DNA from: a virus
IMG/VR virus record: IMGVR_UViG_3300032291_001823
Span: 29,516 to 93,515 of that record
DNA length: 64,000 nt
Reading direction: 5' to 3' (one strand)
Shown piece by piece: positions 3,001 through 54,454 of this stretch (position 1 is the first letter of the stretch; each line of letters starts with the position of its first letter). Below the pieces are notes generated by a model. That model worked only from the letters and a program-made list of their open reading frames with translations. It was not told where the DNA came from and did not search any database. The translations under genes and the position numbers were made by a program.

Positions 3001-4342
3001 TGGTATTCCTACATTCTACTGTGAGTCAAGTGTAAACGTAGATCTTAGACAAGCATTTAATAATAAGGAAGGAGATTTCTATCCTCATGTTAGTACAGGT
3101 ATTCCTGATGAATGGGTTCAGGAAAGTAATGTAACTATTGCGTTTGACAACACTTACTATTACAATCCATCTTTCTCAAAACAGAACACTGAGAATTTTT
3201 TCTCACACCTTCCAGTTGATTGGACTGATGATCAATGTTATACAAATTTTCCATTCAGAGCAATATATTCTGACAGACAACAAAGTTATACAGACAATCG
3301 TGTAAATAGTTGGTTGATATACAGACCAATTAGCTTCTTTGATTTTCCACAGAATTATGGAAAGCTTACAAGCTTAGATGGTATTCAGAATAGAGCTGTC
3401 CTTGCAAGGTTTGAAAACAAATCATTGCTTTACAACACCTTGCTAACAATTGATACAAGCAACCCTCAAGCTGCTTACGTAGGAAACGACACATTGTTCA
3501 GAAGTTCTCCTCCAATAGATTTTGCAGAAACAGATCTTGGTTATGTAGGAAGTCAGAATAAAATGTTGTTAAAGATTCCTCAAGGACAGATAACTATTGA
3601 TGCAAAAAGAGGACAAGTGTTTCTTGTTTCAGGGAACAGTGTACAAGACTTGTCAGCGTTTGGCTCAGGACTGAATAGGTTCTTTACAGATCATCTTGCT
3701 TTTGAAATACTTAGATATTTTCCAAATGTTCCTACAGACAACCATTTCAATGGTGTAGGATTGCATGGTGTATTTGATAGCAAGTTTGATAGGGTTATAA
3801 TAAGTAAACTTGATTATATTCCTCTAAGAAATGACATTAAATACGACGCTGTTAAAGATGAGTTCTACATTGAAACCAAATATAGAATGCCTAGTGAGGA
3901 ATTATTTTACAGCGTCATTCGTGAAGTTGTTTATTTAACAGACACTACATATTTTTGTAATAAGTCTTGGACACTCTCTTTCAATTTCAATACAAAGAGT
4001 TGGGTGAGTTTCCATAGTTATATTCCTAACTGGTATATTGCAGAAAACAATTTCTTCTATTCTGGAATAAATACAGGTTGTGATTTACATGCAATTGCTG
4101 TACAGAGAATACCAACACCAACCACCACTACAACAAGTACAACACGTAGAACCACAACCACCACCACTACAACTACAACACTTGCGCCTCAATGTACTCT
4201 TGCAGGAAATGCTAGAGTTGGTGTTTGTACACTTGCAGGAACTGCAGTGCTAATACCTCCAGTGACTACAACTACAACCACAACAACAATAGCAGCAAAT
4301 TGTACATTGGCAGGAACAGCAGAATTTATTCCACCAGCTTAA
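2..4342 (+). CDS. crAss-like tail stabilisation ('muzzle', P22 gp10-like) protein, N-terminal part; 5'-truncated by window edge; C-terminal Cys/poly-Thr extension
   Basis: The frame is open from position 2 (YKTYINAPCLNFKV...), so GTG at 41 is not the true start. Motifs IYWTDGLNP, GYLRDEVYAF, PIRHHKFPD, GGDTFI, DAKRGQVF and SWTLSF..SWVSFHSY resemble crAss-like stabilisation proteins. It lies upstream of the cargo/RNAP genes. Confidence 0.8.
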   Translation, partial: YKTYINAPCLNFKVSSPIHKVVHKITNCTTEIYWTDGLNPRRFLDLNNPPYTTSIGVNVCDSIDTSAIDCNKLKIQPNFSIPEIDVTDIVNGGNLTAGVYQFAIQYCDAGGEPYTSYYSVTNPTPISNEDIITLDFNYSVGKSIELYIKNLDLTRYFEYYNIAVIKTINAITSVELIGTYFIDSSSKTITYTGQNQTQIRLTLDDVFEKFPYYDIASDVTAVQDVIVWQGLTSIDQVNYQKIANQITLQWETWRIPSTENYSNSVNATNLRGYLRDEVYAFEIVFLLKNGQQTDGFHIPGRTLSVNDTLYPDVPDTNPDFIGEPTYSSGGIGYSPYWKIYNTATEIDFSEGYSSNADYKGAYKYGDFAYWESTDVYPCNTDVWGDLANQPIRHHKFPDALVSPIFESAVYASGSPLTPVETKNAVFPIGVKIDVQQINQLVQTSDLTADEKQNIVGFKIVRGNRNTNKSVIAKGILRNVGKYNREGTDYYFPNYPYNDLKKDPFITTKSNAFLGQCESYRITVLTSGEYQYTDCYTAEVVEAPMNAGDVITQCTIGTITLISGTATILKTSWYTYKISSISVSNTWFWVDPVSLLTKSWIVGPGQTVTVDSSILPNPVPGLPGTFTRNAISNINNPSCAGTDLDGFSTDDSKFRHVFNSPETSFGSPFLGSVLKLENVMFGAGRAHFVEVKKNAMYKLITKEAQEDALKASEDVSRIAGTFDATAMFTAYQSYLQIYINGITRKNYGYSFNSIAEYNYSANIDNNLGIKQRELDLYQYLIPGVQNVGDNYNINNFQRESSVYLKTAGTTPLPFPDKTNSLILSSGGSLISDDSRFTISQKDSCLTPEKEQPISVVSYYAAIKNIIPNQWGQMYSYETIDTGAQVIFDLSNSYTGTTVFGGDTFINKFSFKTKVPFFIDNRVGAPDDSDVFYDELGNIGYPKYWHSARSILSNYTVGGGTGPLKNIISYKARNFDCPNSQADTSGNPGRTFYDGKMYMFTYGIPTFYCESSVNVDLRQAFNNKEGDFYPHVSTGIPDEWVQESNVTIAFDNTYYYNPSFSKQNTENFFSHLPVDWTDDQCYTNFPFRAIYSDRQQSYTDNRVNSWLIYRPISFFDFPQNYGKLTSLDGIQNRAVLARFENKSLLYNTLLTIDTSNPQAAYVGNDTLFRSSPPIDFAETDLGYVGSQNKMLLKIPQGQITIDAKRGQVFLVSGNSVQDLSAFGSGLNRFFTDHLAFEILRYFPNVPTDNHFNGVGLHGVFDSKFDRVIISKLDYIPLRNDIKYDAVKDEFYIETKYRMPSEELFYSVIREVVYLTDTTYFCNKSWTLSFNFNTKSWVSFHSYIPNWYIAENNFFYSGINTGCDLHAIAVQRIPTPTTTTTSTTRRTTTTTTTTTTLAPQCTLAGNARVGVCTLAGTAVLIPPVTTTTTTTTIAANCTLAGTAEFIPPA

Positions 4343-4361: not shown

Positions 4362-4967
4362 ATGGCACAAACAGTATTAATAACATTGACTACGGCAGGA
4401 GCTGATACAGGACCTTTTAATCTATTTTCAAATGTAGATGGTTATGTATCTGCGTTTCAAACAGGAGTGGCGAAAGCTTCTCTTGTTTCAGGATTTACAT
4501 CTACAGTTGTTCCTGATGGAACATCTATAATAAGGGTGAAGTCTACAAGTGTTCTTTGTCCAAACTTTATAGATTTGGCAGTTTCTGGTGTCACCACCAC
4601 CACAACCACCACTACACAAGATCTTATTCAGGTGATTCTTTATGGTAGGCATGATCCAGCTGCTTCTACATTCCCACTTTTGGCATTTGCATATTCACAA
4701 AACGGAGGAGTTTCATGGACTCAAGTGGGTGCATCTTTTAACGACACAACTTGTACCCAAAGAGCTGTTATCAGTGTACAAAGAAACTCATCTCTTTCAA
4801 TAAAAGTTGTTCAAGATGGAAACGTTGGAAATACATGGCAATCAAGTAGAAGTGGTACAAGCTGTCCTGCTTTTACAATATTAAACTGTATTTGGCCAGC
4901 AGCAACTGCAGCAAATTCAAATACATACTACTTTACAGTGAATGGTGATAATCAAGGAACTTGTTAA
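4362..4967 (+). CDS. small virion-associated protein: N-terminal domain, T8 linker, Cys-containing beta-rich C-terminal domain
   Basis: 201-aa ORF with A-rich leader. N-terminus MAQTVLITLTTAGADTGPF is paralogous to that of the next ORF. Internal GVTTTTTTTTQD. Confidence 0.7.
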   Translation: MAQTVLITLTTAGADTGPFNLFSNVDGYVSAFQTGVAKASLVSGFTSTVVPDGTSIIRVKSTSVLCPNFIDLAVSGVTTTTTTTTQDLIQVILYGRHDPAASTFPLLAFAYSQNGGVSWTQVGASFNDTTCTQRAVISVQRNSSLSIKVVQDGNVGNTWQSSRSGTSCPAFTILNCIWPAATAANSNTYYFTVNGDNQGTC

Positions 4968-4976
4968 GAATAACAA

Positions 4977-5846
4977 ATGGCTAAGACAATAATCATAAAG
5001 TTAACTAGTGCAGGCAGAAGAACAGGCCCCTTTCAGATATTAGATGATAGGGGCAATGTTCTTGCCAATGATGTTTCTAAACAAAACATCATTGATGGCT
5101 TTACAGTTAGTGTTGCTGATGAAACAAAGGTTATTGTAATAAAATCTCTATACACATGCTGCAACACCTCAATCAACGTCTCAATAGGAACAGCTACAAA
5201 GGAGGAACTAGCAGCTCAACAATTCAAAGACACAAACACTGCATCTCTTTGGAGGCATTTGACAAACACCACTATTTATAATAAATATTACGGCTGTACA
5301 AATCCTTACATTATAGAATATTCATTTGCATTTAGATATCAAGATGAGATTCTTCAAAATATAAAAGACTATACAAAGGTGTATCAATACATTCCTTCAG
5401 AATATGGTGTGTTTGATGACAATCTTAAAGTTGAAATAGACAACCAGTATTTTGATAAATCAATTCTTTACAATGGTCAGCAGTCTTCTGGTGTGTTGAA
5501 ACTTGTTCCAAAACCAATCAACAACCTGAGTGACTACATGAAATATCCTATTTACAGCGCAGACAGTAAAACAATAACATTTACAAAAAGCGATAACTTC
5601 TACCAGTATAATACATTTTGGTCTTTGGTAAGAGATAAGTCTAAACCACTGTTCCTATCAACATGTGAGTCTCTTTCAATTGACAAAGTTGTAAACCAAT
5701 CTAATATGGACTACTCTAAAAGATCCTTTAAGAAGGAACCTTTGAGAGCTAAAGAACTTAAAGTTAGACATATTCTTGATTCAAGAAGCGACGTACATTT
5801 AGTTTCACAATTCTTTGTAACAGCAAACCAAATCTCTTACAAATAA
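4977..5846 (+). CDS. structural protein, probably the detached C-terminal part of the stabilisation/muzzle protein with an added N-terminal domain
   Basis: 289-aa ORF. LWRH..YYG..PYIIEY, FDKSILYNGQQSSG and YNTFW resemble the C-terminus of crAss-like stabilisation proteins as I recall them (not searched). Confidence 0.55.
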   Translation: MAKTIIIKLTSAGRRTGPFQILDDRGNVLANDVSKQNIIDGFTVSVADETKVIVIKSLYTCCNTSINVSIGTATKEELAAQQFKDTNTASLWRHLTNTTIYNKYYGCTNPYIIEYSFAFRYQDEILQNIKDYTKVYQYIPSEYGVFDDNLKVEIDNQYFDKSILYNGQQSSGVLKLVPKPINNLSDYMKYPIYSADSKTITFTKSDNFYQYNTFWSLVRDKSKPLFLSTCESLSIDKVVNQSNMDYSKRSFKKEPLRAKELKVRHILDSRSDVHLVSQFFVTANQISYK

Positions 5847-19700: not shown

Positions 19701-22700
19701 CTCTGAAGGAGAAAGTTCTCAGATTCTTCAGAAGCATTATTGAATTCTTCAAGCAGTTTGTACAGAAACCTTCTATGAAGGAACAACTGTTTAAAGCAAT
19801 TGACACAGGTAGATTTAAAGAAAGAGTTATTTCAGAGAGCGCAAAGAATGAATTTGCTGAATATAGAGCTGTAGAAGGATTGACAGAAGAGCAAACTCAT
19901 GACTTTGTACAGGATATTACAGCTCGTGTTTTTCAAATAGCATTTGGAACAAACATGTCTTTGTACAATCCTGAGCAAATTACAGCTCCTCAAATATTTG
20001 CAGAAATAAAAGAAAGCTATCAACAAGAAGGAAAATTAGATTTGCTTTCTGAAAATACATGGAGACAACTTATTGGTAAAACTCGTGACTTCCTTCGTAC
20101 GTTCAAAATAGATTTTGATGAAGAGGGTGTTCTTGGTATAAACGATGAGAACTATAATAAGAATGATTATGCTCGTGAGGCATTCTCTACAGACTGGAAA
20201 AAGTCTTCTCCATTTCCTATCAAGTTAATCCTGGGTACATTAACAGAAACTGTACCAACAAGTCAGATAGACACCACTTCTTTGGATCTTCCAAAACAAA
20301 AACTGTCTAGTGTAAATGGATATAAAATTCTAAACTTTGCAAGAACCTTTGCAACAGCTTTGGATAAGTTTGCAAACACCAACAGTGTAACAAAACTTGT
20401 AGACAAACTTATCGAACTGTCTAGATATGACAGTAATTACGTTCGCCTCTTCACTCGTCTGAAGGGAGATAGAAACACTGTATCTATAGACTTCTCAAAG
20501 TTCGAAGAGCAAGACTGGAGACTGTTCATCAACTTCTACCAGACATTTACAAAACAAAAACCTAATGCTGTTATACAATATATAGGTGAAAACAATGAAG
20601 TGTATAATGGTGCAGCTAATCTGTTCAGTGCTGTAGAACAATTTAAACAGGGATGGATTGAGAATGTTAAGACGTTAGCAAATGATAATACATCTCTGAT
20701 ATATTATTATTCTCCAGATAAGACATATAGAACAAAGAAACTGTCTGATATTCCTATTGGTAATCCTCAACAGATGGTTGAGTTTCTTGACAAGCTTGGT
20801 ATAAACTTCCCATTTGAGGTGTATCAAAACCTTAAAGACCCTCAACAAAAAGCTTTTGGAAGAGCTATATCTGCAATACATAAATATGCAAGTGAGAAAG
20901 AGATAGGAAAGGTTACAGGAGAAACACTCACCATAAATGGTCAGCTGAACACTCTTGCAGAACTTTATATAAAAGCCACCAATCCAAATATAGATTCTAC
21001 ATATTTTGGTGTAGATGGTAAACGTCAGCAATCTTATGCTGATAGTAATGCACCTTCTGTATTTGAGAACACGTTTAATGAAATAGAAACACTTGACGAG
21101 CTTCTTTCTGCAAGACCTGAACTTAACGATGTATTCTCTAAGAACAGTTTGATTCTAAAAAAAGGAGGACCATTCTTTGACAAAGATGGTAAACGTACAG
21201 ATAGGAAATTGAAAGTGGGCTACATCCAAGGTACAAAAGATACAGTGGATGATAAAGGAACATCTACATCAAAGCTAGGACTTGGTAGTAGGTTTACACA
21301 AGAGTTTAATCAAAACTTGTCTGGTGACTACTATATTCTTATTCCTGCAGACGGATCTACAGAATGGATGCTCAATCTTGGAAACCAAATAAGTTTTGAA
21401 GATTTTGAAGGAAATGAGGCAAATGATCAAATCCACAAAGTGTTCAGAGGTTATCTGGAAGATGAGATTGAACTTGCCCTGTCTGACAGGTCTTATTTGA
21501 GAAATGTCAAACCTCGTGCAAAAGAACTTCGTTTCTTCAAAGATATTCTTTCTGAAAACCTTTTGACAAACTTAAACAAGTTAATAGAAAAAGGTGACAA
21601 AGAAAAAATCAAAGAGTTCATTGATGAAAATATTTCTGAGATAAATGCAAACATAGACGACTATGTAAATGGTACAGTGGATGATTCAATTAGAGATTTT
21701 AAAAATAATAGTCAGATTTTCCAAATTAATGAGGATGCTTATTCATTCCCATTAATGAATGATAAGTTTGCAAAAGAGCAAGATGTTAATAAATATAACA
21801 TGTCTGAGGATGAGCTGAAGGCATTGTTCAAATTTGCAAACACCAATTACATCATAAACAATATTGAGTTCCATAAGATATTGTTTGGTGATCCTTATCA
21901 GTTTGCAATTAAAGAAAATCAACTGGATGAGACAAAACGTATCAAATCATTCCTCTCTCCAAGAAGAGTGACATTTGATAGCCCTGAGTTTAACACATGG
22001 TTGAATAGTAAGAATAAAGCAGGAGACATTTCTCTCTTACCTGGAGATCCTGGTTACCATGTACATAAAAGTTACACTTCAACAATCACCACTGCTGACG
22101 TAAATATTGTTGGTAGTATTGCTATGATGGAAGGTGTTCCTAAAGATATAAAAGATGCTTATGCCAAAACAAATGAGGCAGATGCAGCATCTATATTGAT
22201 GGACACTACATACAGAGAAATCAAGAATAAGAACGGACAATGGAGTAGGGAAGCTGAAGATTGGCATCAGTGGCAAATGGCTTATACAAGAAACAGGATG
22301 TCTGCCAAAGGATTGTACACTTATACAAATGACAATCTTAAAAAACAAGATGAGAAAACTATATCATCTCCTTCACCTAAACATACATTAGAGATATTGA
22401 AACCTATTGTGACTGGTAGTAAACACAATAAGAACACTATCGATCTTGTGTTGGATAAGTTTTCTCAAATGCCCATGTATTATAGCATGATTGAGGGAAC
22501 CAATCTAGAGAACCTCTATCTGAAGATGATGAAGGAGGACGTAGGATATACAATAATGATAAGTGGTAGAAAGGTTGGAGCTGAAAGTCTTCATAGTTTG
22601 TACAATCAAGATGGCTCATTTAATCAAGAAGCTTTCAATAATCGAATTGAAGTTCCTTGGAAGGCTTATGGTATTCAAGTGGAAACTACAACAGAAGACG

Positions 22701-25700
22701 ATAAGTATCAAACAAGAGGATCTCAGCTTACTAAAATGTCAAGCATGGATCTCTTTAGCAATGGTGAACCTCTTAGTAAAAATCCTGAAAGACAAGCAGT
22801 TATAAGAAAAGCTTATGATAGGAATAAGGATATTCTTGACAAGATGCATGAGAATTCTTATTATGAGCTTCTTAATAAATTAGGAGTTGAAGACCTTGGT
22901 GATAGTTTTAATGTAGTGGATAGGAAGAAACTTTCAGAATCTCTTGAACATGAGATGCTTAGAAGGGAGCTTTCTGACAATGCTATTGATACTGTTAGAA
23001 CTGATGAGAACGGTCAATTCAGAATACCATTTGAATCATCTCCTGCATACACACAGATAAGAAGTCTTATGTTCTCTATGGTGGACAAAGCTCTTGTTTC
23101 TCCAAAGATGAGTGGTGGTGCACACGTACAGGTTCCTGTTACACTCTGGGAATCTGCTACAAAAGGAAGAAGCTTGGCTTATAAAACCAAAGATGGTTGG
23201 AAAAAGATAACCAAAGAGGCATATGATAAGCTAGATGATAATGAGAAGAAGAAGGTGGCTCTTACAGATGACACTCTTAAGTTCTATACAAAGGATGCTC
23301 CGTATTGCGAAGTGATGATTCCTCATTGGTTCAAAGACAAGTTTCCAAAAAACAAATTCAAGACAGATGAAGATATTCTTAACTATCTGAATAATACAGA
23401 AGAGGGTAGGAAGATTCTTACAGGTATAGGATTTCGTATTCCTACACAGGCAACAAGTTCTGTTGAGGTGTTTAGGGTGAAAGGGTTTCTTCCAAAATAT
23501 ATGGGAGCAACAGTTATTGTACCTTCTGAAATCACCACTAAGTCTGGATCTGACTTTGATATTGATAAACTCAATATGTACCTGAAGTCTGTATACGTGA
23601 ATGCAAGAGGTGAGGTTAAGTTGATAAAATATCTAGGATCTGAAGGAAAAACAAAAGAATTCTTTAGAGGTGAGTTTGATAGGATTCTTGAAGGTAAAGC
23701 AGTTAAGAAAGCTGAACTACTTGAGGCAGTTGATATTCTTGCATACAATTTAGCAGATCCGAAAAACCTTCTTAAGAGGTATGATGGTATTTTGAATGTA
23801 CTTTTAGAAGAGTATAACGATATTTCTGATTTGGCAGATTCTCTTATGAAGGATTTGGAAAAACTTGGAGATGAGTCTGTTCAAGCTGATCTTAAAGAAA
23901 AGTTTGTAAACCAAGCATATAAGCAATCCCTTGAGAATGAATATTACGAATCTCTTGAAGAATTGCTCACTCTTCCTGAAGTGTTCCAAAGATTAATATC
24001 TCCTGTAAGTGATGGTGGTCTTAAGAAACTGTCTGAAAGACTGGATGAATTAACAGGTTTTGACGAGAGTAAGATTAAGAACAGGCTTCTTAACAGAAGC
24101 TATATGACTGCTCTCAGACATGCTTTTGTATCTGCAAAGAAATGGGTGGGTATTGCTGCTGTTAATATTACAGGACACTCATTGTTCCAGAAGTCTCAAA
24201 TATATCTTGACCCAGAAAGATTTGCATTTTTACCAAAGAGAGACAAAGAACTTCTTGGAGATGGTTCAGTTGTTCTCCCTCACAACACTGTTGTTGTAAA
24301 TGGAAAGACATACGTATCAATGTCTGGAGCAAAGACTGAAGATGGAACACAATACATATCTGATAGATTGTCTGGATATGGTACATCCTTTGTGGATGTT
24401 GCAAAAGATCCATACATCATGAAGATTATAAAGAGTGAATTGGTTGTTGGTACATTTATGTATCTTGAGAGAATTGGTGTAGGTGAGAAAGCTGCAATGT
24501 TCTTGAATCAACCAATCATTGCTAAATACCTTAGCCATCTGGACAGCATTGGTTATAAAAACCTATTCAACAAAGGTAATATAACTAATGCCCTGGAATC
24601 TTTTCCTTCAAAAGGAGAAACATTTAGGGCAGCAGGTATAGATGTAAATTCTCTTGGGAGTAATATTGAGAAGTATTACAAAAATGGTGGTAAGTTTGAC
24701 ACAGACATAGACAATGCTGTTCAGCAAAAGATATTCTTTGAGTTCTTGAAATATGCTAAAATGGCTGAGTTCAGTTTCAACCTCACTCAAGGATATAACT
24801 ACGACACTACTAGATTTGGTAGTGGTGACGCTCTATTCAGAAAACAAGTAAAAACCCAGAAAGCAAGAGATAAAAATATATTCTCTTCTATAGATAAGGT
24901 TTTTGATACATCATTTATTGGTGAGCAAGCTTTTTTAATTGACAAATCTACAGAAGCATTAGGAGAATATCTAAAGCTTGAAAATCCAAAACTGAGAATA
25001 ATAAGCGACAGTGTTCTAAGACCGTTTGCTGAAAACCAGTATTTGTCAGCTGACGATTATGAAAGGATAGGAAACAGGATTACATCATCTTTCCTAGACT
25101 TCATAATCCAAACCAAGACAACGCTAAGTGATGAAATAAAAGAACTATTGGTAGATCCTGCTACAGCTGTAGCTACACAACTTGCTGAAGCTCAGGCTAA
25201 GTTTCCTGAAAACAAGTTGTTGAATGAACTGCAGGTGGTTAGTTCTGATAGGTTTGATGGAGCAAAAAGCATCAAGCTTAGGACAAATGATAAGTCTGCA
25301 TACAGTGAAAATCTCTACCAAGGAATGTTCAGACAACTCAGAGACACTCCTGAGACAAATGCTTTATATAATAATATTGTAAAGCTGGCTATTCTTCAAG
25401 GAACCTATCAGAGTGCAATATCAATAAGGAATGTAATTCCTATTGAAGACTTTAGTAAAACAATTGCTCCAGTTATTGCAAATCTTGTAGCCACTCCTGA
25501 AATAGAAGCATTTGCAAAAGGAGCATTCCAAAGAAACAATTGGAAGAACCAAGATGTATGGAGAACAATTTCTCCTAAGTTTTTTGTAAACGATGAACCT
25601 ATTGGACAAGTTGAGACGTACAGTGGTGATGTTATTGACATCTATCAATACAACTCTCCTGCATTTCCAAATGTTGCAAATCTGAATATAAAAAGTGAAG

Positions 25701-38635: not shown

Positions 38636-39202
38636 ATGCCTACATTTATAAAAGCTGGTTTTTGGAAAGAACTTTGTAAACCATGTGATGGTTACAAAGA
38701 GTGGCTTAATTTAGATAACTTTGTAAAGGAAAGAGCTGTACCAAAACTCTACTCTGCAACTTTTTTTGATACCACCTTACAAACAAATGGTGGAGCAACT
38801 ATAGCTAATCAAGTGTTAATTAATTCAACACAAGGTGCTGATGGGTTTACATTAGGACCAGATAATAGAATTAATGTTACTAATCCAGGAATTTACTTTT
38901 TAAGTGTTGGTCTTCAACTTTCATTTACAGGTGGTGCGTCAAATTATAATGTAACTGTTTGGTATACTGTTGATGATGTAATTGTTCCTAATTCATCATT
39001 TACATTTACTACCACTGGAGCACAAAATGATCAGACACTCGCAAAAATAACAGATACAATAACATTGACTGGTGGACAATATCTTAAATTTTATTGGTGG
39101 TCACAAGCCACTGGTATGAGACTTTTACCAACTGCTGCAGGAACTAATCCAACAAGACCATTGTCTCCATCTGTGAATGTTTCCATATTTAATGTAGGAT
39201 AA
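38636..39202 (+). CDS. virion decoration/fibre protein with C1q/BclA-like C-terminal beta-sandwich
   Basis: N-terminus shared with the 48577 ORF. The pattern I.V..PGIYFL...LQ...ITLT.GQYL is C1q/TNF-like. Confidence 0.55.
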   Translation: MPTFIKAGFWKELCKPCDGYKEWLNLDNFVKERAVPKLYSATFFDTTLQTNGGATIANQVLINSTQGADGFTLGPDNRINVTNPGIYFLSVGLQLSFTGGASNYNVTVWYTVDDVIVPNSSFTFTTTGAQNDQTLAKITDTITLTGGQYLKFYWWSQATGMRLLPTAAGTNPTRPLSPSVNVSIFNVG

Positions 39203-39218
39203 TAAAATATTAATACCG

Positions 39219-41021
39219 ATGCCAAGTAAACAAATAGGATGGAGCAACGAATCTAATCTTTTATATACAATATCAAGTCAAATATCAAGACTTGCAGGTA
39301 TAATAGCTACTTCTGGAGGAGGTGGTGGTGGTACAATCACAGGTGGAGGTGCTTCTGGTCAAGTGACATTCTGGGATGCTGCAACAAACATTACAGGGTC
39401 TAATAACTTGTTTTGGGATGCAGCACAGAATAGACTTGGTATTGGCACTAATACACCTCAAACATCTGGTGAATTAGCAACAAGCGGAGCAAGGTTGAGA
39501 TTTAATCAAACTGTTGGTGGTTCAATATTTCACGGTATTGAATTTGCCACAAATGGCACAGTCTATTCTTCTTTGTTAGCCAATCAAAATACTGGCGAAG
39601 TAAGGTTATCTACTAACGAATCTTATTTCCCTACATTCTACGCAAGTGGTAGTGAGGGGATGAGGCTTACAACCAACAGAAATCTAATCATCCAAAACGG
39701 AGGTACATTCACCGATGACAACACTAATAGATTACAAGTTAGTGGATCAGGAAAATTTAGTTTAAATCAGAATACATCTACTCAATTAACAGTAAGTAAT
39801 ACTAATGTTAATGCTGCTGCAGCTAGTGAAGTTCAAGTTACAACTAATGGAGGAACTGGTGTTTTTGGAAAATATAGTACACTAGGAGTTCCAGTTAAAA
39901 TAATTACTGCAAGTAATACATATTTATATAATGGCGTAACTGCAGGTGACATAGCAATTTTAAACGATTTTGCTACTGGTACTATTAAATTTGCAACAGG
40001 TGGTGTATCTACTGCTCAAATGGTTTTGCATCAAACTGGTAACCTTTCACTAGGCTCAACTACTGATGATAACACTAATAGATTACAAGTTTTAGGAAAT
40101 GCTAAAATTACAGGAGACTTATCAATACTAGCTAACTCTAGTGGTAGTACTATATCATCATACAATGCCACTTCAAGTACCATATTTCTTGGTAATACAG
40201 CTAGTGGAACAGTGGCTTTTGAATTACAGACTGGAAGCACAAGAAGATTTAGAATTTTTGCAACAGCTACTTCCACTACATTTGAATCTTCCAACCAAAC
40301 TGGAGCTTTTATTTTTAATAAAGATGTTAGTGTATCTGGAAAAATTTCTGTATTATCAATTGTACCAACATCTGGTATATCAGTAGCTATAGAAAATGGT
40401 ACTGAATTTGTTTTTGGAAATGGTGGTCCCTCATCTGCATTTACAAGAATCTCTTTAAGTAGCACTTATACAATCGCAAGCGGTACTAATACTTCTAATG
40501 GTATAAGAGATTCTGCTGTTATAAATATATCAGGAACAGCAGTTGCTGATTACGTTAGCTTCAATGCTACTCCTACTATAAATGGATTAGGTGCAACAGG
40601 TACATATAAAGCTTTTCAGTGGACAAATAATACAGGCTGGGGACTTTATGGTTCTGGTACAGCTCCTAACTATCTTGGTGGTGATCTTGCTGTAGCAGGT
40701 GTATTGAGAGAAACTGTTACAACAAATCGTCAGACAGTATCTTATACATTAGTTTTAACAGACAGAGGAAAGCTTGTAGAAACAAACGTTGGAGCAGCAA
40801 ACACCATCACTGTTCCTCCAAATTCCTCTATAGCATTCCCTATTGGAACTAAAATTGATATTGCCCAATATGGTGCAGGTCAAACAACAATTGTTCCAGG
40901 AATAGGTGTAACAGTGAGAAGTGCAGGAGGAGCATTGAAACTTTCAGCTCAATATAGCGGTGCAACGATAGTAAAAATAGGAACAGACGAATGGTATTTG
41001 TTTGGTGACATAACAGTTTAA
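39219..41021 (+). CDS. tail fibre/spike protein
   Basis: 600 aa. FWDAAQNRLGIGTNTP, TDDNTNRLQV twice and a C-terminal YTLVLTDRGK...FPIGT.I...Q.GAGQ...WYLFGD domain. Confidence 0.75.
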   Translation: MPSKQIGWSNESNLLYTISSQISRLAGIIATSGGGGGGTITGGGASGQVTFWDAATNITGSNNLFWDAAQNRLGIGTNTPQTSGELATSGARLRFNQTVGGSIFHGIEFATNGTVYSSLLANQNTGEVRLSTNESYFPTFYASGSEGMRLTTNRNLIIQNGGTFTDDNTNRLQVSGSGKFSLNQNTSTQLTVSNTNVNAAAASEVQVTTNGGTGVFGKYSTLGVPVKIITASNTYLYNGVTAGDIAILNDFATGTIKFATGGVSTAQMVLHQTGNLSLGSTTDDNTNRLQVLGNAKITGDLSILANSSGSTISSYNATSSTIFLGNTASGTVAFELQTGSTRRFRIFATATSTTFESSNQTGAFIFNKDVSVSGKISVLSIVPTSGISVAIENGTEFVFGNGGPSSAFTRISLSSTYTIASGTNTSNGIRDSAVINISGTAVADYVSFNATPTINGLGATGTYKAFQWTNNTGWGLYGSGTAPNYLGGDLAVAGVLRETVTTNRQTVSYTLVLTDRGKLVETNVGAANTITVPPNSSIAFPIGTKIDIAQYGAGQTTIVPGIGVTVRSAGGALKLSAQYSGATIVKIGTDEWYLFGDITV

Positions 41022-46256: not shown

Positions 46257-46439
46257 ATGAACCAACAAATGACAGAAAAGCAAGCACTTGAGGTTGTTAA
46301 AGTTATTCTTGACCTTGCAAGTGAAAAGGGACTTTTTAAGACACTTAATGATTCTATGGCAGCAATCGCAGCGTTTAACACGTTGAGTGAAGCTGTTCTG
46401 AAAGAAGAAGAACAAGTTAAAAAGGGTGGTGCTAAATAA
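46257..46439 (+). CDS. small helical hypothetical protein (possible fibre assembly chaperone)
   Basis: 60-aa ORF preceded by TAATTTTG (46234-41). Confidence 0.55.
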   Translation: MNQQMTEKQALEVVKVILDLASEKGLFKTLNDSMAAIAAFNTLSEAVLKEEEQVKKGGAK

Positions 46440-46450
46440 GCACCCCCTTT
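46421..46450 (+). terminator. GC-rich hairpin, probable intrinsic terminator
   Basis: aaagggtggtgct-aaata-agcacccccttt (one bulge) spanning the stop codon. Confidence 0.6.
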
Positions 46451-46475: not shown

Positions 46476-46610
46476 ATGACATCGAAACAAATAGGATGGA
46501 GCCAGGAGTCAAACCTTTTGTGGGAAATCTCTAAGAAGCTGGAGAATCTTATACGTATTGCTGGTAGTTCACAAACTACAACAAGTACAACCACTACAGC
46601 GGCTCCTTAA
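46476..46610 (+). CDS. 44-aa microprotein: fibre-type N-terminal anchor plus poly-Thr tail (not in ORF track)
   Basis: MTSKQIGWSQESNLLWEISKKLENLIRIAGSSQTTTSTTTTAAP; the N-terminus matches the 39219 ORF (MPSKQIGWSNESNLL). Confidence 0.85.
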   Translation: MTSKQIGWSQESNLLWEISKKLENLIRIAGSSQTTTSTTTTAAP

Positions 46611-46636
46611 TAATGGACATTTTTTAAAACCTACAT

Positions 46637-47656
46637 ATGGGCAAATCCCTTAAGATCGTTTGTGTTCAGCCTGATGACGACTACTATTTTTGGCAAGTTA
46701 ATGTCTGGTTGGAAAGTTTAAGACTAATTGATAAGAGTGATAAGGCAATTGTTCTCATCTTCACTCCTAACTTTAGAGAACAAAACATGAAATGGAAAGA
46801 GCTTGAGGCTGTATATCCTGAAGCTGAATTTGCATATTATAAGGATGAGGACAATATAAGCAAGACCTTTGGCATCTATATTCCTGTATTGCGTCCATAT
46901 ACATTGATGAAATATTTCAATGAACATCCAGAAATGGTAAATCATGCAATCTTCTATTGTGACTGTGACATTGTATTTACAGACAAATTTAACATAGATG
47001 ATTATATTGATGACGATGTTTGTTATGTTTCAGACACAAACAGCTACATAAATGCTTCTTATTTTGACAGTAAGGTGAATGATGTGAAGCCTGAAATGTT
47101 GGAGAAATATAAGAAAGCAGATATATTATCTGAAGTGACAAGCCTTGTTGGAATAACAAGGGAGATATGTGAGAAAAATAATAACCACTCTGGAGGAGCC
47201 CAATATCTCCTAAAGAATGTAGGAGGAAGTTTTTGGGATAAGGTTATAACAGATTGCCTAGTGATAAGATCTTATTTGATGAATGTCAATAGGCAGTTCT
47301 TTGAAAATGAAAATAAAGGATATCAAAGTTGGTGTGCTGATATGTGGGCAGTGTTATGGAACCTTTGGTTGAGAGAAAAAGAAGTGAAGGTGATTCCTGA
47401 ATTAGATTTTGCTTGGAGTTCTGATCCAATAGAAAAATTGGATAATATAGGAATCCTTCATAATGCTGGAATAGTGGGAAACAGTCAAGGAACTGCTCCT
47501 ACGTTCTATAAAGGACTCTATCATAATGGAAAGAATCCATTTGACGATCCTCACTTACAAACAGTTTTGAACAGCGAAGAAAGTAAAAAACTTTGCAATC
47601 ACTACTACCTAACTAGAATGTTTGACGTTAAACAGAAATATAATTTACAATATTAA
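46637..47656 (+). CDS. GT-A glycosyltransferase resembling peptidyl-Ser/Hyp O-glycosyltransferases (SERGT1/HPAT-like, GT96/GT95)
   Basis: YYFWQ, YIPVLRPY...KYF, hydrophobic strand plus DCD (DxD), GGAQYLL, WCADMWA and a C-terminal ILH. The motif order parallels plant Y..WQ / N(K/R)P / DxD / W..EMY. Confidence 0.7.
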   Translation: MGKSLKIVCVQPDDDYYFWQVNVWLESLRLIDKSDKAIVLIFTPNFREQNMKWKELEAVYPEAEFAYYKDEDNISKTFGIYIPVLRPYTLMKYFNEHPEMVNHAIFYCDCDIVFTDKFNIDDYIDDDVCYVSDTNSYINASYFDSKVNDVKPEMLEKYKKADILSEVTSLVGITREICEKNNNHSGGAQYLLKNVGGSFWDKVITDCLVIRSYLMNVNRQFFENENKGYQSWCADMWAVLWNLWLREKEVKVIPELDFAWSSDPIEKLDNIGILHNAGIVGNSQGTAPTFYKGLYHNGKNPFDDPHLQTVLNSEESKKLCNHYYLTRMFDVKQKYNLQY

Positions 47657-47667
47657 ATTGAAACAAA

Positions 47668-47844
47668 ATGGGAAATGATCGTAAAGATTTGAAAGCGTAT
47701 GTACGCTTTGATGGCAGCGGACGTGTAGTTCCTGGCAGCCTGGTCCTTAGAAAGAAAATGCCTAAAGTTGGAAAATGGATGGAAGTACAAGCTTATGAGT
47801 GTTGTGTATACACCACTACTACCACTACCACTATTGCTCCTTAA
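47668..47844 (+). CDS. 58-aa microprotein with poly-Thr tail (not in ORF track)
   Basis: MGNDRKDLKAYVRFDGSGRVVPGSLVLRKKMPKVGKWMEVQAYECCVYTTTTTTTIAP; A-rich leader aaacaaaATG; fills the intergenic gap. Confidence 0.85.
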   Translation: MGNDRKDLKAYVRFDGSGRVVPGSLVLRKKMPKVGKWMEVQAYECCVYTTTTTTTIAP

Positions 47845-47863
47845 TAACCAACAAATATAATTT

Positions 47864-48271
47864 ATGGCAAAGTCTCTTTTTCCTGAGGAAATGATAAAGT
47901 CTTCTGACATGTCATTGGAAGGAATTGCAAGCAAGCTCACATATTTTCATGAGCAGCTTCATCTCTTACATTGGCAAACAAACAGCTATGCGGAACATCA
48001 AGCTCTTGGAGGATTGTACGATTATGTACATGATTTCAAAGATGGTGTTATAGAAAAGCTTATGGGTTATATGAACAAACGACCTACAAGTGTAAAGATG
48101 GAACAATTGTCACCATCAGCAACACCTTCGTCAGTTGTTTCTGAGCTCCTTTCTTTTTCTTCAAGTCTTAAGAGCTATGCAGAGGGTAATGGTTTTCATG
48201 ACATTTCTAATTTGGCAGATGCTTTGTCTGGCGAAGCAGCTAAAACACGTTATCTATTAACACTTAGCTAA
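47864..48271 (+). CDS. ferritin/Dps-like four-helix protein (DUF5856-like)
   Basis: LHLLHWQTNSYAEHQALGGLYD...D..IEK.MG and C-terminal YLLTL. Confidence 0.75.
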   Translation: MAKSLFPEEMIKSSDMSLEGIASKLTYFHEQLHLLHWQTNSYAEHQALGGLYDYVHDFKDGVIEKLMGYMNKRPTSVKMEQLSPSATPSSVVSELLSFSSSLKSYAEGNGFHDISNLADALSGEAAKTRYLLTLS

Positions 48272-48576: not shown

Positions 48577-49320
48577 ATGCCCACGTTTATAAAAACTGGA
48601 TATTGGGAAAAGTTACAGAAGGGATATAAAGGATGGTTGAATCTTGATGAGATAATTTCAGGTGCAGCAATCACTGGCTCTGGAACATCTGGATATTTTC
48701 CAAAGTTCAATGGAACCTCTGCTCTACAGAATAGCTCTATGTCAGAAACCACTCAAGGAATTGTTACTATTAGTCCAAGTGGTACTTTTAATTCAACATT
48801 TATTCTTGAAGGAGATGCTGGTGTATTTTATCAAGCAAATAGATATTCAAATAACTCAACCCATCCAAGATGTGAACTTAGGAAAGCAAGAGGAACTCGT
48901 ATAACTCCTTTAGTTGTTCAAACAAATGATCTGTTAGGTTCTTTAGAATTTTATGGATACGATGGATCAGCTTTTCAAAGAAATGGAATAATAGGAGTTT
49001 TTGTTGATAGTGTAGCAGGATCTGCAATAAATCCTAGATTACAAATTGGATTAGGTACATCAGCTCCTAACAACCAATACTATTTAACTCTTTTCAATAC
49101 AGGTAACTTTGCAATAGGAGGCGCTTCTGACGACCTTGCAAACAAACTGCAAGTCACTGGTTCTGTAATTTCTACACAATACAGACTATCAGCATTGAAC
49201 ACAGCACCTGCATCTGCAACAGCAACAGGAACTCTTGGAGAAATAAGAATTGATGCTAACCACATATATGTTTGCACAGCAACAAATGTATGGAAGCGTG
49301 CTGCAATAGCAACATGGTAA
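48577..49320 (+). CDS. short fibre/decoration protein
   Basis: N-terminus paralogous to the 38636 ORF. C-terminal APASATATGTLGEIR....IYVC.ATN.WKR fibre-tip motif. Confidence 0.65.
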   Translation: MPTFIKTGYWEKLQKGYKGWLNLDEIISGAAITGSGTSGYFPKFNGTSALQNSSMSETTQGIVTISPSGTFNSTFILEGDAGVFYQANRYSNNSTHPRCELRKARGTRITPLVVQTNDLLGSLEFYGYDGSAFQRNGIIGVFVDSVAGSAINPRLQIGLGTSAPNNQYYLTLFNTGNFAIGGASDDLANKLQVTGSVISTQYRLSALNTAPASATATGTLGEIRIDANHIYVCTATNVWKRAAIATW

Positions 49321-51943: not shown

Positions 51944-52476
51944 AATGAGTTGTATATAGACAACACTTTTGGAATGAATGTTGAACTAGCTGCATCTTGA
52001 TAACATTGTTTAGCAAATATTCCATCTGACTCATACTCATCTAGATTCCATCTCTTGTCTCCTACACATTGTTTGGAAACAATAAAGTTGTGACTATCTA
52101 TACTGCCCACTTCTATAACGTTGCCTTTTAAACGCATGTTTCTATCTTTCCATTCTTGTGAGAACGATATGAAGTCTACGTTTAAATGGTTTACATTTTC
52201 CCATAGATAAGGATGGATAGTGGTATCATCATCGTTGAAATAGATGTGTCCGTTCTCCACCTTATCTATAGCGTGGTTTCTCTGTCCGTTTCCATATATA
52301 CTTCCCCCCACCTTTATTGCATACGCTTCACATTCCTGTGGTATGTCAACTTTAGGAACATCATAAGCATCAAATACAACTATCCATCTGTAGCTATCAC
52401 GTGGAATGTTTATAGTTTTTGCTATATCATGTAGGTTGTTAGGACGTGTACAAGGGGTAATTATGTTTAAGAACAT
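51937..52476 (-). CDS. small GT-A glycosyltransferase (GT43/GT2-like)
   Basis: IITPCTRP, QRNHAI, GHIYFNDDD and IDSHNF resemble GT43 TPT.R / QRN.AL / G.VYFADDD. Confidence 0.75.
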   Translation of the reverse strand: MFLNIITPCTRPNNLHDIAKTINIPRDSYRWIVVFDAYDVPKVDIPQECEAYAIKVGGSIYGNGQRNHAIDKVENGHIYFNDDDTTIHPYLWENVNHLNVDFISFSQEWKDRNMRLKGNVIEVGSIDSHNFIVSKQCVGDKRWNLDEYESDGIFAKQCYQDAASSTFIPKVLSIYNSLK

Positions 52477-53117
52477 GGTGTATTGTTCCTGTTTAATATA
52501 AGAAGCTTATCATTATTCCATCCTGGAGAGTACTTAAGCCTATGTTCTGTCATTATGAATGTCATAGATGAGAAGTAGTCTTCTACATCACTAATAGCCT
52601 CAACATACTTCCTTTCATCCTCGCTTCTGAATATGTCTTCTATAATAAGGAATCCTCCAGGTGCTATATGTTTATACGCAACGTTAATAAACCTCACCTG
52701 ATCATTGAACTCATGTGTACTGTCTTCTATTATAATGTCAAACATCTTTGAAGACAGTCCTTCTGATATAGATGACTTGTTCTTTATATCCATGTTTATA
52801 TAGGTGGTGTCTGACAGGTTATCATTGATTGCTTTTTGCAATCTCTGTTCTGCATACTCATACCCATATAACGTTGCGTTAGGGAAATACTCTCTCCAGC
52901 ACAGCATAGACATATTATCTAATATACCCACCTCTCCAAGAACAATTGGATTGTAACGCATATAAGAGAATAACATGTTGTAAACAGCTGTATATGGATG
53001 CTTATGTAACGATGGCACAGTGTTATACGGACATTTGTCTGTAGGATATTTAATTCCTATTTCACATAAGTCTGACACAGCATTTGTAGAATCAATGACC
53101 AAGTTTTGTACTTTCAT
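52467..53117 (-). CDS. class I SAM-dependent methyltransferase (sugar O-methyltransferase-like)
   Basis: TDK...H.YT..Y, EVGI...S...WREYFPNA.LYG.E, FDIIIEDSTH and PGGFLIIED; likely start MKVQN at 53117. Confidence 0.8.
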   Translation of the reverse strand: MKVQNLVIDSTNAVSDLCEIGIKYPTDKCPYNTVPSLHKHPYTAVYNMLFSYMRYNPIVLGEVGILDNMSMLCWREYFPNATLYGYEYAEQRLQKAINDNLSDTTYINMDIKNKSSISEGLSSKMFDIIIEDSTHEFNDQVRFINVAYKHIAPGGFLIIEDIFRSEDERKYVEAISDVEDYFSSMTFIMTEHRLKYSPGWNNDKLLILNRNNTPCS

Positions 53118-53127
53118 TTGTTGTGTT

Positions 53128-53697
53128 TTAGTTGTGTACGAACAGCACCTTATTAACCTTAGCAATGTTCTCCACTGGAAATCTTTGCTTGAAGTTTTCT
53201 ACAAACCATCCATCAGCAGCATACTCTGTTCCTAGGTATAGCTGTTGAGCCAAATCTCTACGTGTAGCAAATGCTCCCATATCAATTTGTCCTCCTGCAG
53301 GAACACATTTGAAATATGCATAATTGAAATGTGAATGCACCATATCCCAATACACCATTCCCACCTTCTGTTTACATAATGTAGATATTTCTTCTACAAA
53401 GTTGGGAGTGTAATAGTTATCATCACCTGTCATGATGATGTAATCAGCAGTGCTCATTTGTTTACCCATCTCTCTAGGAGTGTGACCCCAATCATTATAT
53501 CTCTTATCTGTAACCGTATGTCTTATTCTAGAATCCTTAAACATATTGATGATGTCTAATATCTCATCTAGATGATCAGTTCCATCTATAACAACGTTAG
53601 CTCCCCAATCTCCATTAGTTTGAGCAACTAGGGATGCTAACATTGATGTAAGAGGAGCAGGTCTATAGTATGTTGGAATTATGAACTCTACTAGCAT
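53128..53697 (-). CDS. small GT-A glycosyltransferase (GT2/GT43-like)
   Basis: FIIPTY, VIDG, WGHTPR, GDDNYY, IDMGAF, ADG. Confidence 0.8.
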   Translation of the reverse strand: MLVEFIIPTYYRPAPLTSMLASLVAQTNGDWGANVVIDGTDHLDEILDIINMFKDSRIRHTVTDKRYNDWGHTPREMGKQMSTADYIIMTGDDNYYTPNFVEEISTLCKQKVGMVYWDMVHSHFNYAYFKCVPAGGQIDMGAFATRRDLAQQLYLGTEYAADGWFVENFKQRFPVENIAKVNKVLFVHN

Positions 53698-54454
53698 TGT
53701 ATTGTTTTAATATGTTTAAATAATTTCTAGTCCAATTTGGCACTAGTTTGACATCACCAGTTGGAATTTGACCCATCTGCCTAAGCTTCTCAACATGTGC
53801 AGAATGTCTTTGTATTGCATTTGGACGTGAATCATCATCTGTACCAAGCCCACTCATGTGATAGCCCCTACCTCCCCACATATAGAACCAACTAACTTCC
53901 TCATCAGGAGGAGAAGCAATAACCACCTTATCTCTTCCAAGCTCATGCATTTTTACAACAAGAGTCATGTCATATCCAGCATTCTCTAAAGGATGTCTAC
54001 CTACAGCTTCCCAAGCATCTCTGCTATATACAATTCCTGAATTACCAAGTCCTGTAATAGCTTCAATGTTTTCTCCACTAAACAAAACTCCTCTGTTCCA
54101 ATGTAATAGATTAGATGCTGGTGTAAAATATTTTGCAATATTTCTTAGATGATTTGGCATAGCAATGTCATCATCATCCCACACAGCAATTATATCATGT
54201 TTACATTTCTCAAGAGTGTAATTTTCTTTCTCTCCTATTGTACTGAATGTCTCTTTAAGGTTGTAAATCTTAACCTCTGGATGATCAAATATGAGAGTTT
54301 GTAAAGGATAGTCATTTACAATAATGAGTTCTTTTTCTCCTGGATAGTCTTGCTGGAGAAAGCTGTAAATGGACTCTTCCAAGTAGTCCACTCTTCCATA
54401 AGTTATACACTTACACGATATCGGAGGAAAATAGTTTGTAGAATCGTTCTGCAT
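53663..54454 (-). CDS. GT2-like glycosyltransferase
   Basis: CITYGR..LEESI.SFL.QDY, ELIIVND, IAVWDDDD, GYD. Confidence 0.85.
   Translation of the reverse strand: MQNDSTNYFPPISCKCITYGRVDYLEESIYSFLQQDYPGEKELIIVNDYPLQTLIFDHPEVKIYNLKETFSTIGEKENYTLEKCKHDIIAVWDDDDIAMPNHLRNIAKYFTPASNLLHWNRGVLFSGENIEAITGLGNSGIVYSRDAWEAVGRHPLENAGYDMTLVVKMHELGRDKVVIASPPDEEVSWFYMWGGRGYHMSGLGTDDDSRPNAIQRHSAHVEKLRQMGQIPTGDVKLVPNWTRNYLNILKQYNASRVHNSNIL

Follow-up and report, generated by a model that had tools for sequence, protein, structure and literature searches.

Phage-encoded glycosyltransferases modify the capsid and tail-tube proteins of their own particles in the mycobacteriophages Che8, Corndog and Myrna, and the passages of PMC12363180 that deal with the subject describe a blunting of antibody recognition by this glycosylation and name mycobacteriophages as the only phages in which glycosylation of the virion has been shown (PMC12363180). 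This is the closest known system to the one described here, which lies in a stretch of 64,000 nucleotides (positions 29,516 to 93,515 of the IMG/VR virus record IMGVR_UViG_3300032291_001823; hereafter the window, to which coordinates refer unless stated otherwise) and consists of the gene for a glycosyltransferase of 339 amino acids (aa) between two very short open reading frames (ORFs), ORF A and ORF B, each ending in a run of threonine (Thr) codons (Table 1). We consider it probable that this enzyme is a cytoplasmic transferase that O-glycosylates Thr tags, borne both by virion proteins and by minimal anchor-plus-tag pegs such as the products of ORF A and ORF B. As in the mycobacteriophages, a glycosyltransferase gene in the genome is accompanied by Thr-rich C-terminal tails on structural proteins, and Freeman et al. 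(2023, Cell Host Microbe 31:1216) reportedly placed the mycobacteriophage glycosylation sites in C-terminal extensions. The tails considered here are found on a capsid protein resembling gp36 of phage phicrAss001 and on major capsid or major tail proteins of phages of Gram-positive bacteria. Unlike in the mycobacteriophages, the proposed acceptor is a short, quantised tag of seven threonines followed by x-x-P (T7-x-x-P), free-standing proteins of 44-58 aa consist of an anchor and this tag, and the cultured carriers infect Firmicutes and one genus of Bacteroidota, with uncultured crAss-like phages in addition.

Two further groups of enzymes are relevant for comparison. Several GT8-type glycosyltransferases act on cytoplasmic proteins, and one of them, GlyE, glycosylates a serine-rich repeat protein; the plant enzymes HPAT (GT95) and SERGT1 (GT96) put the first sugar on a peptide hydroxyl, which is the activity proposed here for the 339-aa enzyme. 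Short anchor modules, for their part, are an established device of crassviruses, given that the head fibres of phicrAss001 (gp21 and gp29) are anchored in pockets of the hexons by their first 38-58 residues, as described in the passages of PMC10172136 on these fibres (PMC10172136), and a similar short N-terminal docking is what we propose for ORF A and ORF B.

The original prediction had placed two ORFs of fewer than 60 codons with a common poly-Thr end on either side of the enzyme gene, and both were recovered there with legible tags: ORF A ends in SSQTTTSTTTTAAP and ORF B in YECCVYTTTTTTTIAP, each directly before the stop. The last 12 nucleotides of the two ORFs are identical (GCTCCTTAATAA) and include a double TAA stop. 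The pattern goes well beyond chance, as only three of the 858 six-frame ORFs of at least 20 aa in the whole window carry six or more Thr within their last 14 residues, and ORF A and ORF B are two of these three. The three genes of the cassette are co-directional, spaced by 26 and 11 nucleotides, and stand in a fibre-rich part of the plus-strand block; fibre and tail-like genes on both sides of the cassette support the predicted location in a late structural block. Neither microprotein has a match in Pfam. The ORF A profile retrieved only designed helical repeats and coiled coils from the PDB, a generic helix signal, nothing matched the ORF B profile among PDB chains, and neither profile showed sequence similarity to any solved crassvirus chain. 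A predicted complex of the enzyme with ORF B scored 0.01, which speaks neither for nor against binding.

Conservation of the cassette was examined in related loci. A scan of IMG/VR with the 339-aa enzyme returned 283 relatives, and the best 80 of these were examined, with enzymes 61-79% identical to the query and many of them on contigs of ~90-118 kilobases (kb). All 148 Thr-tailed ORFs in the 80 loci lie on the strand of the enzyme, 127 of them within -500 to +500 nucleotides of it (two distance bins of 500 nucleotides). A Thr-tailed protein of the ORF A type is encoded just upstream of the enzyme in 46 of the 80 loci, and one of the ORF B type just downstream in 59 of 78. The ORF A module retains the motif QIGW...LLWQISKQLE ahead of its Thr run, and the ORF B module retains LKAYVRFDGSGRVV...VGxW.E..YECC, with L8, R13, D15, R19, P32, V34, G35, E44, C45 and C46 invariant. 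Most of the seeming absences are accounted for either by an insertion resembling a homing endonuclease or by ORF A and ORF B modules that bear longer passenger domains, of 130-438 aa. Since modules and Thr tails are kept next to the enzyme in related loci, ORF A and ORF B are, on this comparison of sequences, real genes; since the same modules also occur with passenger domains, the N-terminal modules appear to be reusable, and the microproteins to be their minimal 'module plus tag' forms.

The insertion itself is an ORF of 194-197 aa whose N-terminal motif looked, by eye, like that of a homing endonuclease; in four of the loci (L001, L010, L027 and L076) it separates the enzyme from the ORF A homologue, which it displaces to a distance of ~700 nucleotides. 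In ORF B, the E-C-C directly before the Thr run (47797-47805) is invariant among homologues, and a cysteine is found no more than six residues ahead of the first T/S block in 30 of 79 other T7-tagged proteins (tag-bearing proteins of L090-L208), a frequency that looks higher than the usual rarity of cysteine, as judged without a computed background and from families that are not independent. The invariant cysteine pair had suggested a glycocin or another modified peptide. This candidate was rejected, the enzyme being GT8-like and not SunS-like or GT2, with no transporter among the neighbours, which are fibre and structural genes; to a SunS-type glycocin (a GT2 peptide glycosyltransferase, a leader-bearing Cys-rich precursor, an export or immunity gene) the cysteine pair of ORF B bears the sole likeness.

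The tag has a characteristic length. Among the 247 pure Thr runs of the related loci, 116 consist of exactly seven residues, followed in frequency by runs of four (46), eight (38) and five (25), and the longest has nine. The commonest residues behind the runs are AAP, ATP, VAP, EPR and EAP, along with S/T continuations such as STS and STT, so that the consensus is about seven Thr followed usually by x-[A/T/P]-P; units such as T7-VAP also occur in tandem, in up to four copies. In ORF A and ORF B the runs are written in a mixture of ACT, ACA and ACC codons. The fixed run length and the mixed codons indicate selection on the peptide, as had been suggested from the codons of the two microproteins, and a slippage or DNA-repeat origin was discarded given these mixed codons, the sharp peak at seven and the position of all runs in the Thr frame at ORF ends. 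Over the window and the 80 related loci, ACC makes up 20% of the Thr codons inside runs versus 7% at isolated Thr, an enrichment that may lower repeat instability or relate to tRNA use.

The enzyme belongs to a large family without a described function. It matches phrog_4417 ('unknown function') with an E-value of 4.5e-52 and nothing in Pfam at E <= 1, and at E <= 0.001 its family comprises 753 sequences, each representing a cluster at 50% identity. A C-D-C-D motif occupies residues 108-111, and an alignment of 72 sequences, reaching down to 29% identity, leaves Y81, D109, D111, Y137, F258, H275, K292 and Y324 invariant; D109 and D111 of the DxD motif, together with H275, would be the metal ligands. 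The AlphaFold model (predicted local distance difference test score, pLDDT, 97.4; predicted template modelling score, pTM, 0.94) is a single Rossmann-like alpha/beta/alpha domain of the GT-A type. Foldseek gave 188 PDB matches at E <= 0.001, the top ones listed being all GT-A enzymes, with glycogenin as best match (E 1.4e-5) and UGGT, WbbM and GT6 enzymes close by (E ~1e-5, template modelling scores 0.4-0.6). VIA, a fold search independent of Foldseek, returned 102 chains at Z >= 8, led by the Skp1 alpha-GalT 6mw8 (root-mean-square deviation 3.5 over 207 aligned residues) and LgtC, both at Z 14.2, and continuing with glycogenin (14.1), UGGT (13.8), WbbM (13.3), GlyE (13.1) and the PBCV-1 capsid glycosyltransferase (11.0); an Anaerococcus GT8 protein and LARGE1 are also among the top rows. 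The predicted DxD glycosyltransferase is thus borne out by the modelled fold and its GT-A matches as well as by the invariant aspartates, and we regard the 339-aa protein as a DxD GT-A glycosyltransferase with a retaining-type, GT8-like predicted fold that stands outside the Pfam GT8 and HPAT families.

The likeness to the GT8-type enzymes glycogenin, LgtC, Skp1 alpha-GalT and GlyE (Z 13-14) extends over nearly the whole chain and includes the DxD and a later conserved His/Lys. Unlike these enzymes, the phage protein is ~80-100 residues longer than minimal GT8 domains, shares only 8-12% identity with them in structural alignments, and lacks a match to Glyco_transf_8 (PF01501), which was not found anywhere in this genome at E <= 10 with control genomes that do match. 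A kinship with SERGT or HPAT, as originally proposed, received no support: the Pfam HPAT model (PF23452), a hidden Markov model, has no match at E <= 10 in the genome, and none was reported in the 72 family members (E <= 0.01) or in eight homologues from cultured phages (E <= 1). No HPAT or SERGT1 chain, for which the existence of solved structures was not checked, appears among the listed Foldseek and VIA matches, and a protein-language-model search yielded only a weak lead, a single related Atlas cluster with HPAT on 10% of its members. Searching PDB chains by sequence, with the enzyme alone or with a profile, gave nothing meaningful. Reading the sequence by eye, with no predictor used, we found no evident signal peptide or membrane segment. 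Longer members of the family are fused to methyltransferase, GT2, GT6, GlcNAc-transferase or O-fucosyltransferase domains, which fits a role in glycan building; in one representative of 1369 aa (P0243) the domain of the 339-aa enzyme is joined to an O-fucosyltransferase, a GlcNAc-transferase (PF11397) and an F5/8 type C domain.

The association of enzyme and tag extends well beyond the immediate relatives. A tblastn search of 50,697 phage records with the enzyme (E <= 1e-3) found 77 matches, and phages carrying the family have Enterococcus, Lactococcus, Lactobacillus, Staphylococcus and Clostridium as hosts, in addition to the environmental crAss-like phages. No Mycobacterium phage is among the 77 matching records, in a collection assumed to include Che8, Corndog and Myrna, so the enzyme family appears to be different from the mycobacteriophage enzymes. 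Seven phages of Gram-positive bacteria with enzymes of 25-32% identity were opened; all seven encode poly-Thr-tailed proteins, and in five the enzyme is directly downstream of one. It follows a Thr-tailed major tail protein in phiFL1A, a Thr-tailed major capsid protein in 4995_1 (T6-KP-T7-QA) and a Thr-tailed major structural protein in 1706 (T10); in R3.3 one Thr-tailed protein lies just upstream of the enzyme and a second one downstream, and in Iacchus two lie upstream. In the remaining two phages the tail is found ~1.3-1.7 kb downstream of the enzyme, on orf50 in bIL285 and, in Planchet, on a protein annotated as the major tail protein. Of the three genes that immediately precede the enzyme in the cultured Chryseobacterium phage MA9V-3, two have long T/S linkers, which end in T6-LAP and T6-AAP. 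As a separate observation in the Enterococcus phage Planchet (L088:2760-2900), a shifted frame past the TAG stop of the major capsid gene gives ~37 residues, mostly Thr and Ser, before the next stop, and a programmed frameshift could, from the reading frames, provide some capsid subunits with a Thr tail.

The reverse search used only the DNA pattern of T7-x-x-P-stop to scan IMG/VR and found 111 stretches, each of at most ~15 kb. All of their 117 sites are in the Thr frame right before the stop, a few of them in very short open frames, and the enzyme family is present in 35 of the 111 stretches; two of three complete contigs without the enzyme locally have it elsewhere. The present genome carries runs of (ACN)7 on one strand only, as do 13 near-complete relatives that encode the enzyme, with 3-24 runs per genome; three TerL relatives in which tblastn did not match the enzyme (Leptolyngbya phage Lbo-JY46, Cellulophaga phage phi17:2 and crAssphage cr118_1) have none. 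Co-occurrence of the transferase with Thr tails, which the original prediction had put forward as one of its checks, is therefore strong both in IMG/VR loci and in cultured phages of Gram-positive bacteria. Full-text searches of an incomplete literature collection turned up no account of either the enzyme family or phage poly-Thr tags.

The tags of this genome point to the virion surface. Six coding ORFs in its 93.5 kb, every one of them on the plus strand, contain Thr tracts, which are otherwise seen in only three short ORFs of non-coding appearance; the six are ORF A, ORF B and the genes for proteins of 1551 (structural), 201, 113 and 397 aa. The 113-aa protein, which ends in T4-IAP, adjoins a tail-fibre-like gene. 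The 397-aa protein ends in T4-LIP and is encoded outside the window (G000 21963-23156), three genes past the gene for the major capsid protein. When modelled (pLDDT 68.6), it matches 7qof_a, a chain of the phicrAss001 capsid (Foldseek E 1e-7; VIA Z 14.0 over 282 aligned residues), with a middle domain that matches FliD. By its length and domains, compared with the relevant passages of PMC10172136, this chain is gp36, an auxiliary capsid protein of 333 residues in the outer capsid layer, present in one copy per major capsid protein (PMC10172136), so that the Thr tail of the gp36-like protein would sit on the outer layer of the capsid. The same passages of PMC10172136 make no mention of glycosylation in phicrAss001.

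The docking modules provide a second indication. The first 32 residues of ORF A are 56% identical to the N-terminus of the 600-aa tail-fibre-like protein (tblastn E 5e-8), whose C-terminal part matches phrog_21510 (unknown function) best and also the minor tail protein family phrog_8780. By analogy with the phicrAss001 fibres, ORF A and ORF B may thus be docked on the particle. The proposed architecture of anchor plus acceptor is plausible overall: it fits ORF A, given the fibre N-terminus, and the ORF B module bears real passenger domains in relatives. Two further gene pairs have only their first ~25 residues in common, 38636-39202 with 48577-49320 (MPTFIK.G.W...WLNLD) and 4362-4967 with 4977-5846 (MA.T..I.LT.AG..TGPF), and in sequence both look like additional reusable docking modules.

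Taking these observations together, the proposal starts from what the sequences and models show: conserved ORFs, an enzyme with a GT-A fold and catalytic motifs, its joint occurrence with the tag, and an N-terminal module common to ORF A and the fibre. A soluble, metal-dependent GT-A enzyme (DxD...His), most likely active in the cytoplasm of the infected cell, would take a host nucleotide sugar and place an O-linked sugar on threonines of a portable tag, a run of about seven Thr and then x-[A/T/P]-P. Threonine would be the acceptor, the 339-aa enzyme would add the first sugar, and the linkage would be alpha. The tag stands at the end of, or within, several proteins of the structural block, namely the gp36-like outer capsid protein, the 113-aa protein, the 1551-aa structural protein and the 201-aa protein; in ORF A and ORF B it would be the sole payload, behind N-terminal modules that resemble the docking modules of fibres. 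With the microproteins on the particle, the outcome would be a virion bearing glycosylated, mucin-like pegs and tails.

Several points weigh against this proposal. None of the members of the system has been seen to carry a glycan, the virion location of ORF A and ORF B is one that we infer, and the ORF B module has no paralogue in this genome by tblastn. Some relatives have the enzyme and passenger-bearing anchors with few or no Thr tails nearby, and the co-occurrence counts are raw numbers that ignore shared ancestry. One complete phage (L119) has T7 runs but no match to the enzyme family, so the tag does not strictly need an enzyme of the 339-aa type; this phage (IMGVR_UViG_3300037991_007827; 194,521 bases, 100% complete) has eight runs of (ACN)7, besides a T-rich tail that closes with QSP, and judging from its sequence may use a different transferase. 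Finally, the fold comparison with which the original prediction was to be checked decided only in part: protein-directed enzymes are indeed among the best matches (Skp1 GalT, glycogenin, UGGT, GlyE), yet LgtC, which acts on lipo-oligosaccharide, reaches the same Z as the best of them and WbbM (O-antigen) scores as high as this group. With protein-directed and glycan-directed enzymes scoring alike, the fold cannot name the acceptor.

This ambiguity bears directly on two alternatives. The threonines could be primed by a host enzyme or another phage enzyme, with the GT8-like 339-aa enzyme extending the glycan, the part that GlyE and its relatives play on serine-rich repeat proteins. GlyE and the Skp1 alpha-GalT, both among the closest folds, extend a pre-existing sugar, the phage has two GT2 genes and a methyltransferase that could take part, and family members are fused to other glycosyltransferase domains; yet glycogenin, an equally close fold, is established to prime on a protein hydroxyl, five small phages of Gram-positive bacteria carry the enzyme and neither GT2 nor GT4 genes, and GT2 is present in 10 of the 13 near-complete relatives and missing from three. 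Since the 339-aa enzyme is the constant partner of the tag while GT2 and GT4 vary, the gene content favours a self-sufficient first-sugar enzyme, and we regard a role confined to extension as unlikely. Slightly less likely again, in our estimate, is a reading in which the Thr tracts stay unmodified, as hydrophilic spacers or tails of a kind typical for the structural proteins of these phages. The enzyme would then have a target other than protein, for instance a host envelope polysaccharide or lipo-oligosaccharide, and its adjacency to Thr-tailed genes would reflect shared late expression. LgtC and WbbM among the best fold matches would suit such an enzyme, Thr tracts do serve as internal linkers too, and the complete phage with T7 runs lacks the enzyme family. 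A C-terminal spacer with nothing behind it, however, has no obvious use, nor would a spacer account for a run length fixed near seven; enzyme and tag are jointly present in phages of Firmicutes and Bacteroidota and jointly absent from the three TerL relatives, and no membrane segment is evident in the enzyme, by eye only.

A further alternative accepts an interaction with the enzyme and questions the destination: the microproteins may be glycosylated, or may bind the enzyme, without being parts of the virion, as intracellular decoys, assembly factors, regulators, or decayed stumps of display proteins composed of anchor and passenger. Truncation is a plausible origin, given that the anchors of ORF A and ORF B bear full passenger domains in relatives. 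Nevertheless, dozens of diverged loci repeat the clean T7-x-x-P-stop ends and the conserved modules, the ORF A module is a fibre module, and the phicrAss001 head fibres, in the passages of PMC10172136 cited above, dock through segments of comparable position (first 38-58 residues). We consider this the least likely of the three alternatives, and glycosylation of Thr tags on virion proteins and pegs by the cytoplasmic transferase the best account of the observations.

The phage is crAss-like in a broad sense, as follows from its gp36-like protein and from TerL identities of 40.6% to Leptolyngbya phage Lbo-JY46, 33.5% to Cellulophaga phage phi17:2 and only 26-30% to Crassvirales; the label given in the original prediction therefore holds loosely. 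There are no tRNA genes in the window. A DUF5856 protein (47864-48271; best PHROG a starvation-inducible transcriptional regulator) is encoded directly 3' of ORF B; among the related loci examined, L014, L065 and L073 at least also have it 3' of the cassette. The methyltransferase and the two GT2 genes adjoin the PhoH, dUTPase and RecA genes (52467-54454), and could, if connected with the cassette, extend or methylate the glycan.

Table 1. Coordinates of the cassette and of other features of the window
Feature	Position	Strand	Description
ORF A	46476-46610	+	44 aa; putative helical N-terminal docking module of ~30 aa, then tag TTTSTTTT-AAP, double stop
GT-A glycosyltransferase gene	46637-47656	+	339 aa; predicted GT8-like retaining fold; basis: phrog_4417 match, alignment, model, fold matches
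ORF B	47668-47844	+	58 aa; N-terminal module of ~45 aa closing in invariant E-C-C, then T7-IAP, double stop
1551-aa virion structural protein, C-terminal part	2-4342	+	tracts near end: T5ST2; T10 then LAP; T8 then IAA
201-aa protein	4362-4967	+	internal T8 tract behind N-terminal module common with the ORF at 4977
600-aa tail-fibre-like protein	39219-41021	+	first ~32 residues correspond to the ORF A module
Terminator-like hairpin and T-rich stretch	46428-46444	+	just 5' of ORF A; consensus scan only, weak
Methyltransferase	52467-53165	-	
GT2 glycosyltransferases (two)	53128-53697; 53663-54454	-	

A wider reading can be put forward tentatively, although we think it somewhat more apt to fail than to hold: T7-x-A-P could be a portable glycosylation tag, written into the genes, whose sole reader is one cytoplasmic enzyme from a family not yet described; crAss-like phages and many phages of Gram-positive bacteria would use it to build a modular glycan display, with ORF A and ORF B as minimal 'fibres' and a mucin-like coat assembled from interchangeable anchors. 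Cultured phages carry the enzyme family, which makes the proposal directly testable. A short peptide tag and a single soluble enzyme would be a possible tool for the glycosylation of proteins in the cytoplasm, and a function would be provided for a large unannotated family (phrog_4417, no Pfam). If the proposal is true, self-glycosylation of phages would be widespread, and it would bear on the stability of phages, on their adhesion to mucus and polysaccharides, and on their immune recognition in phage therapy.

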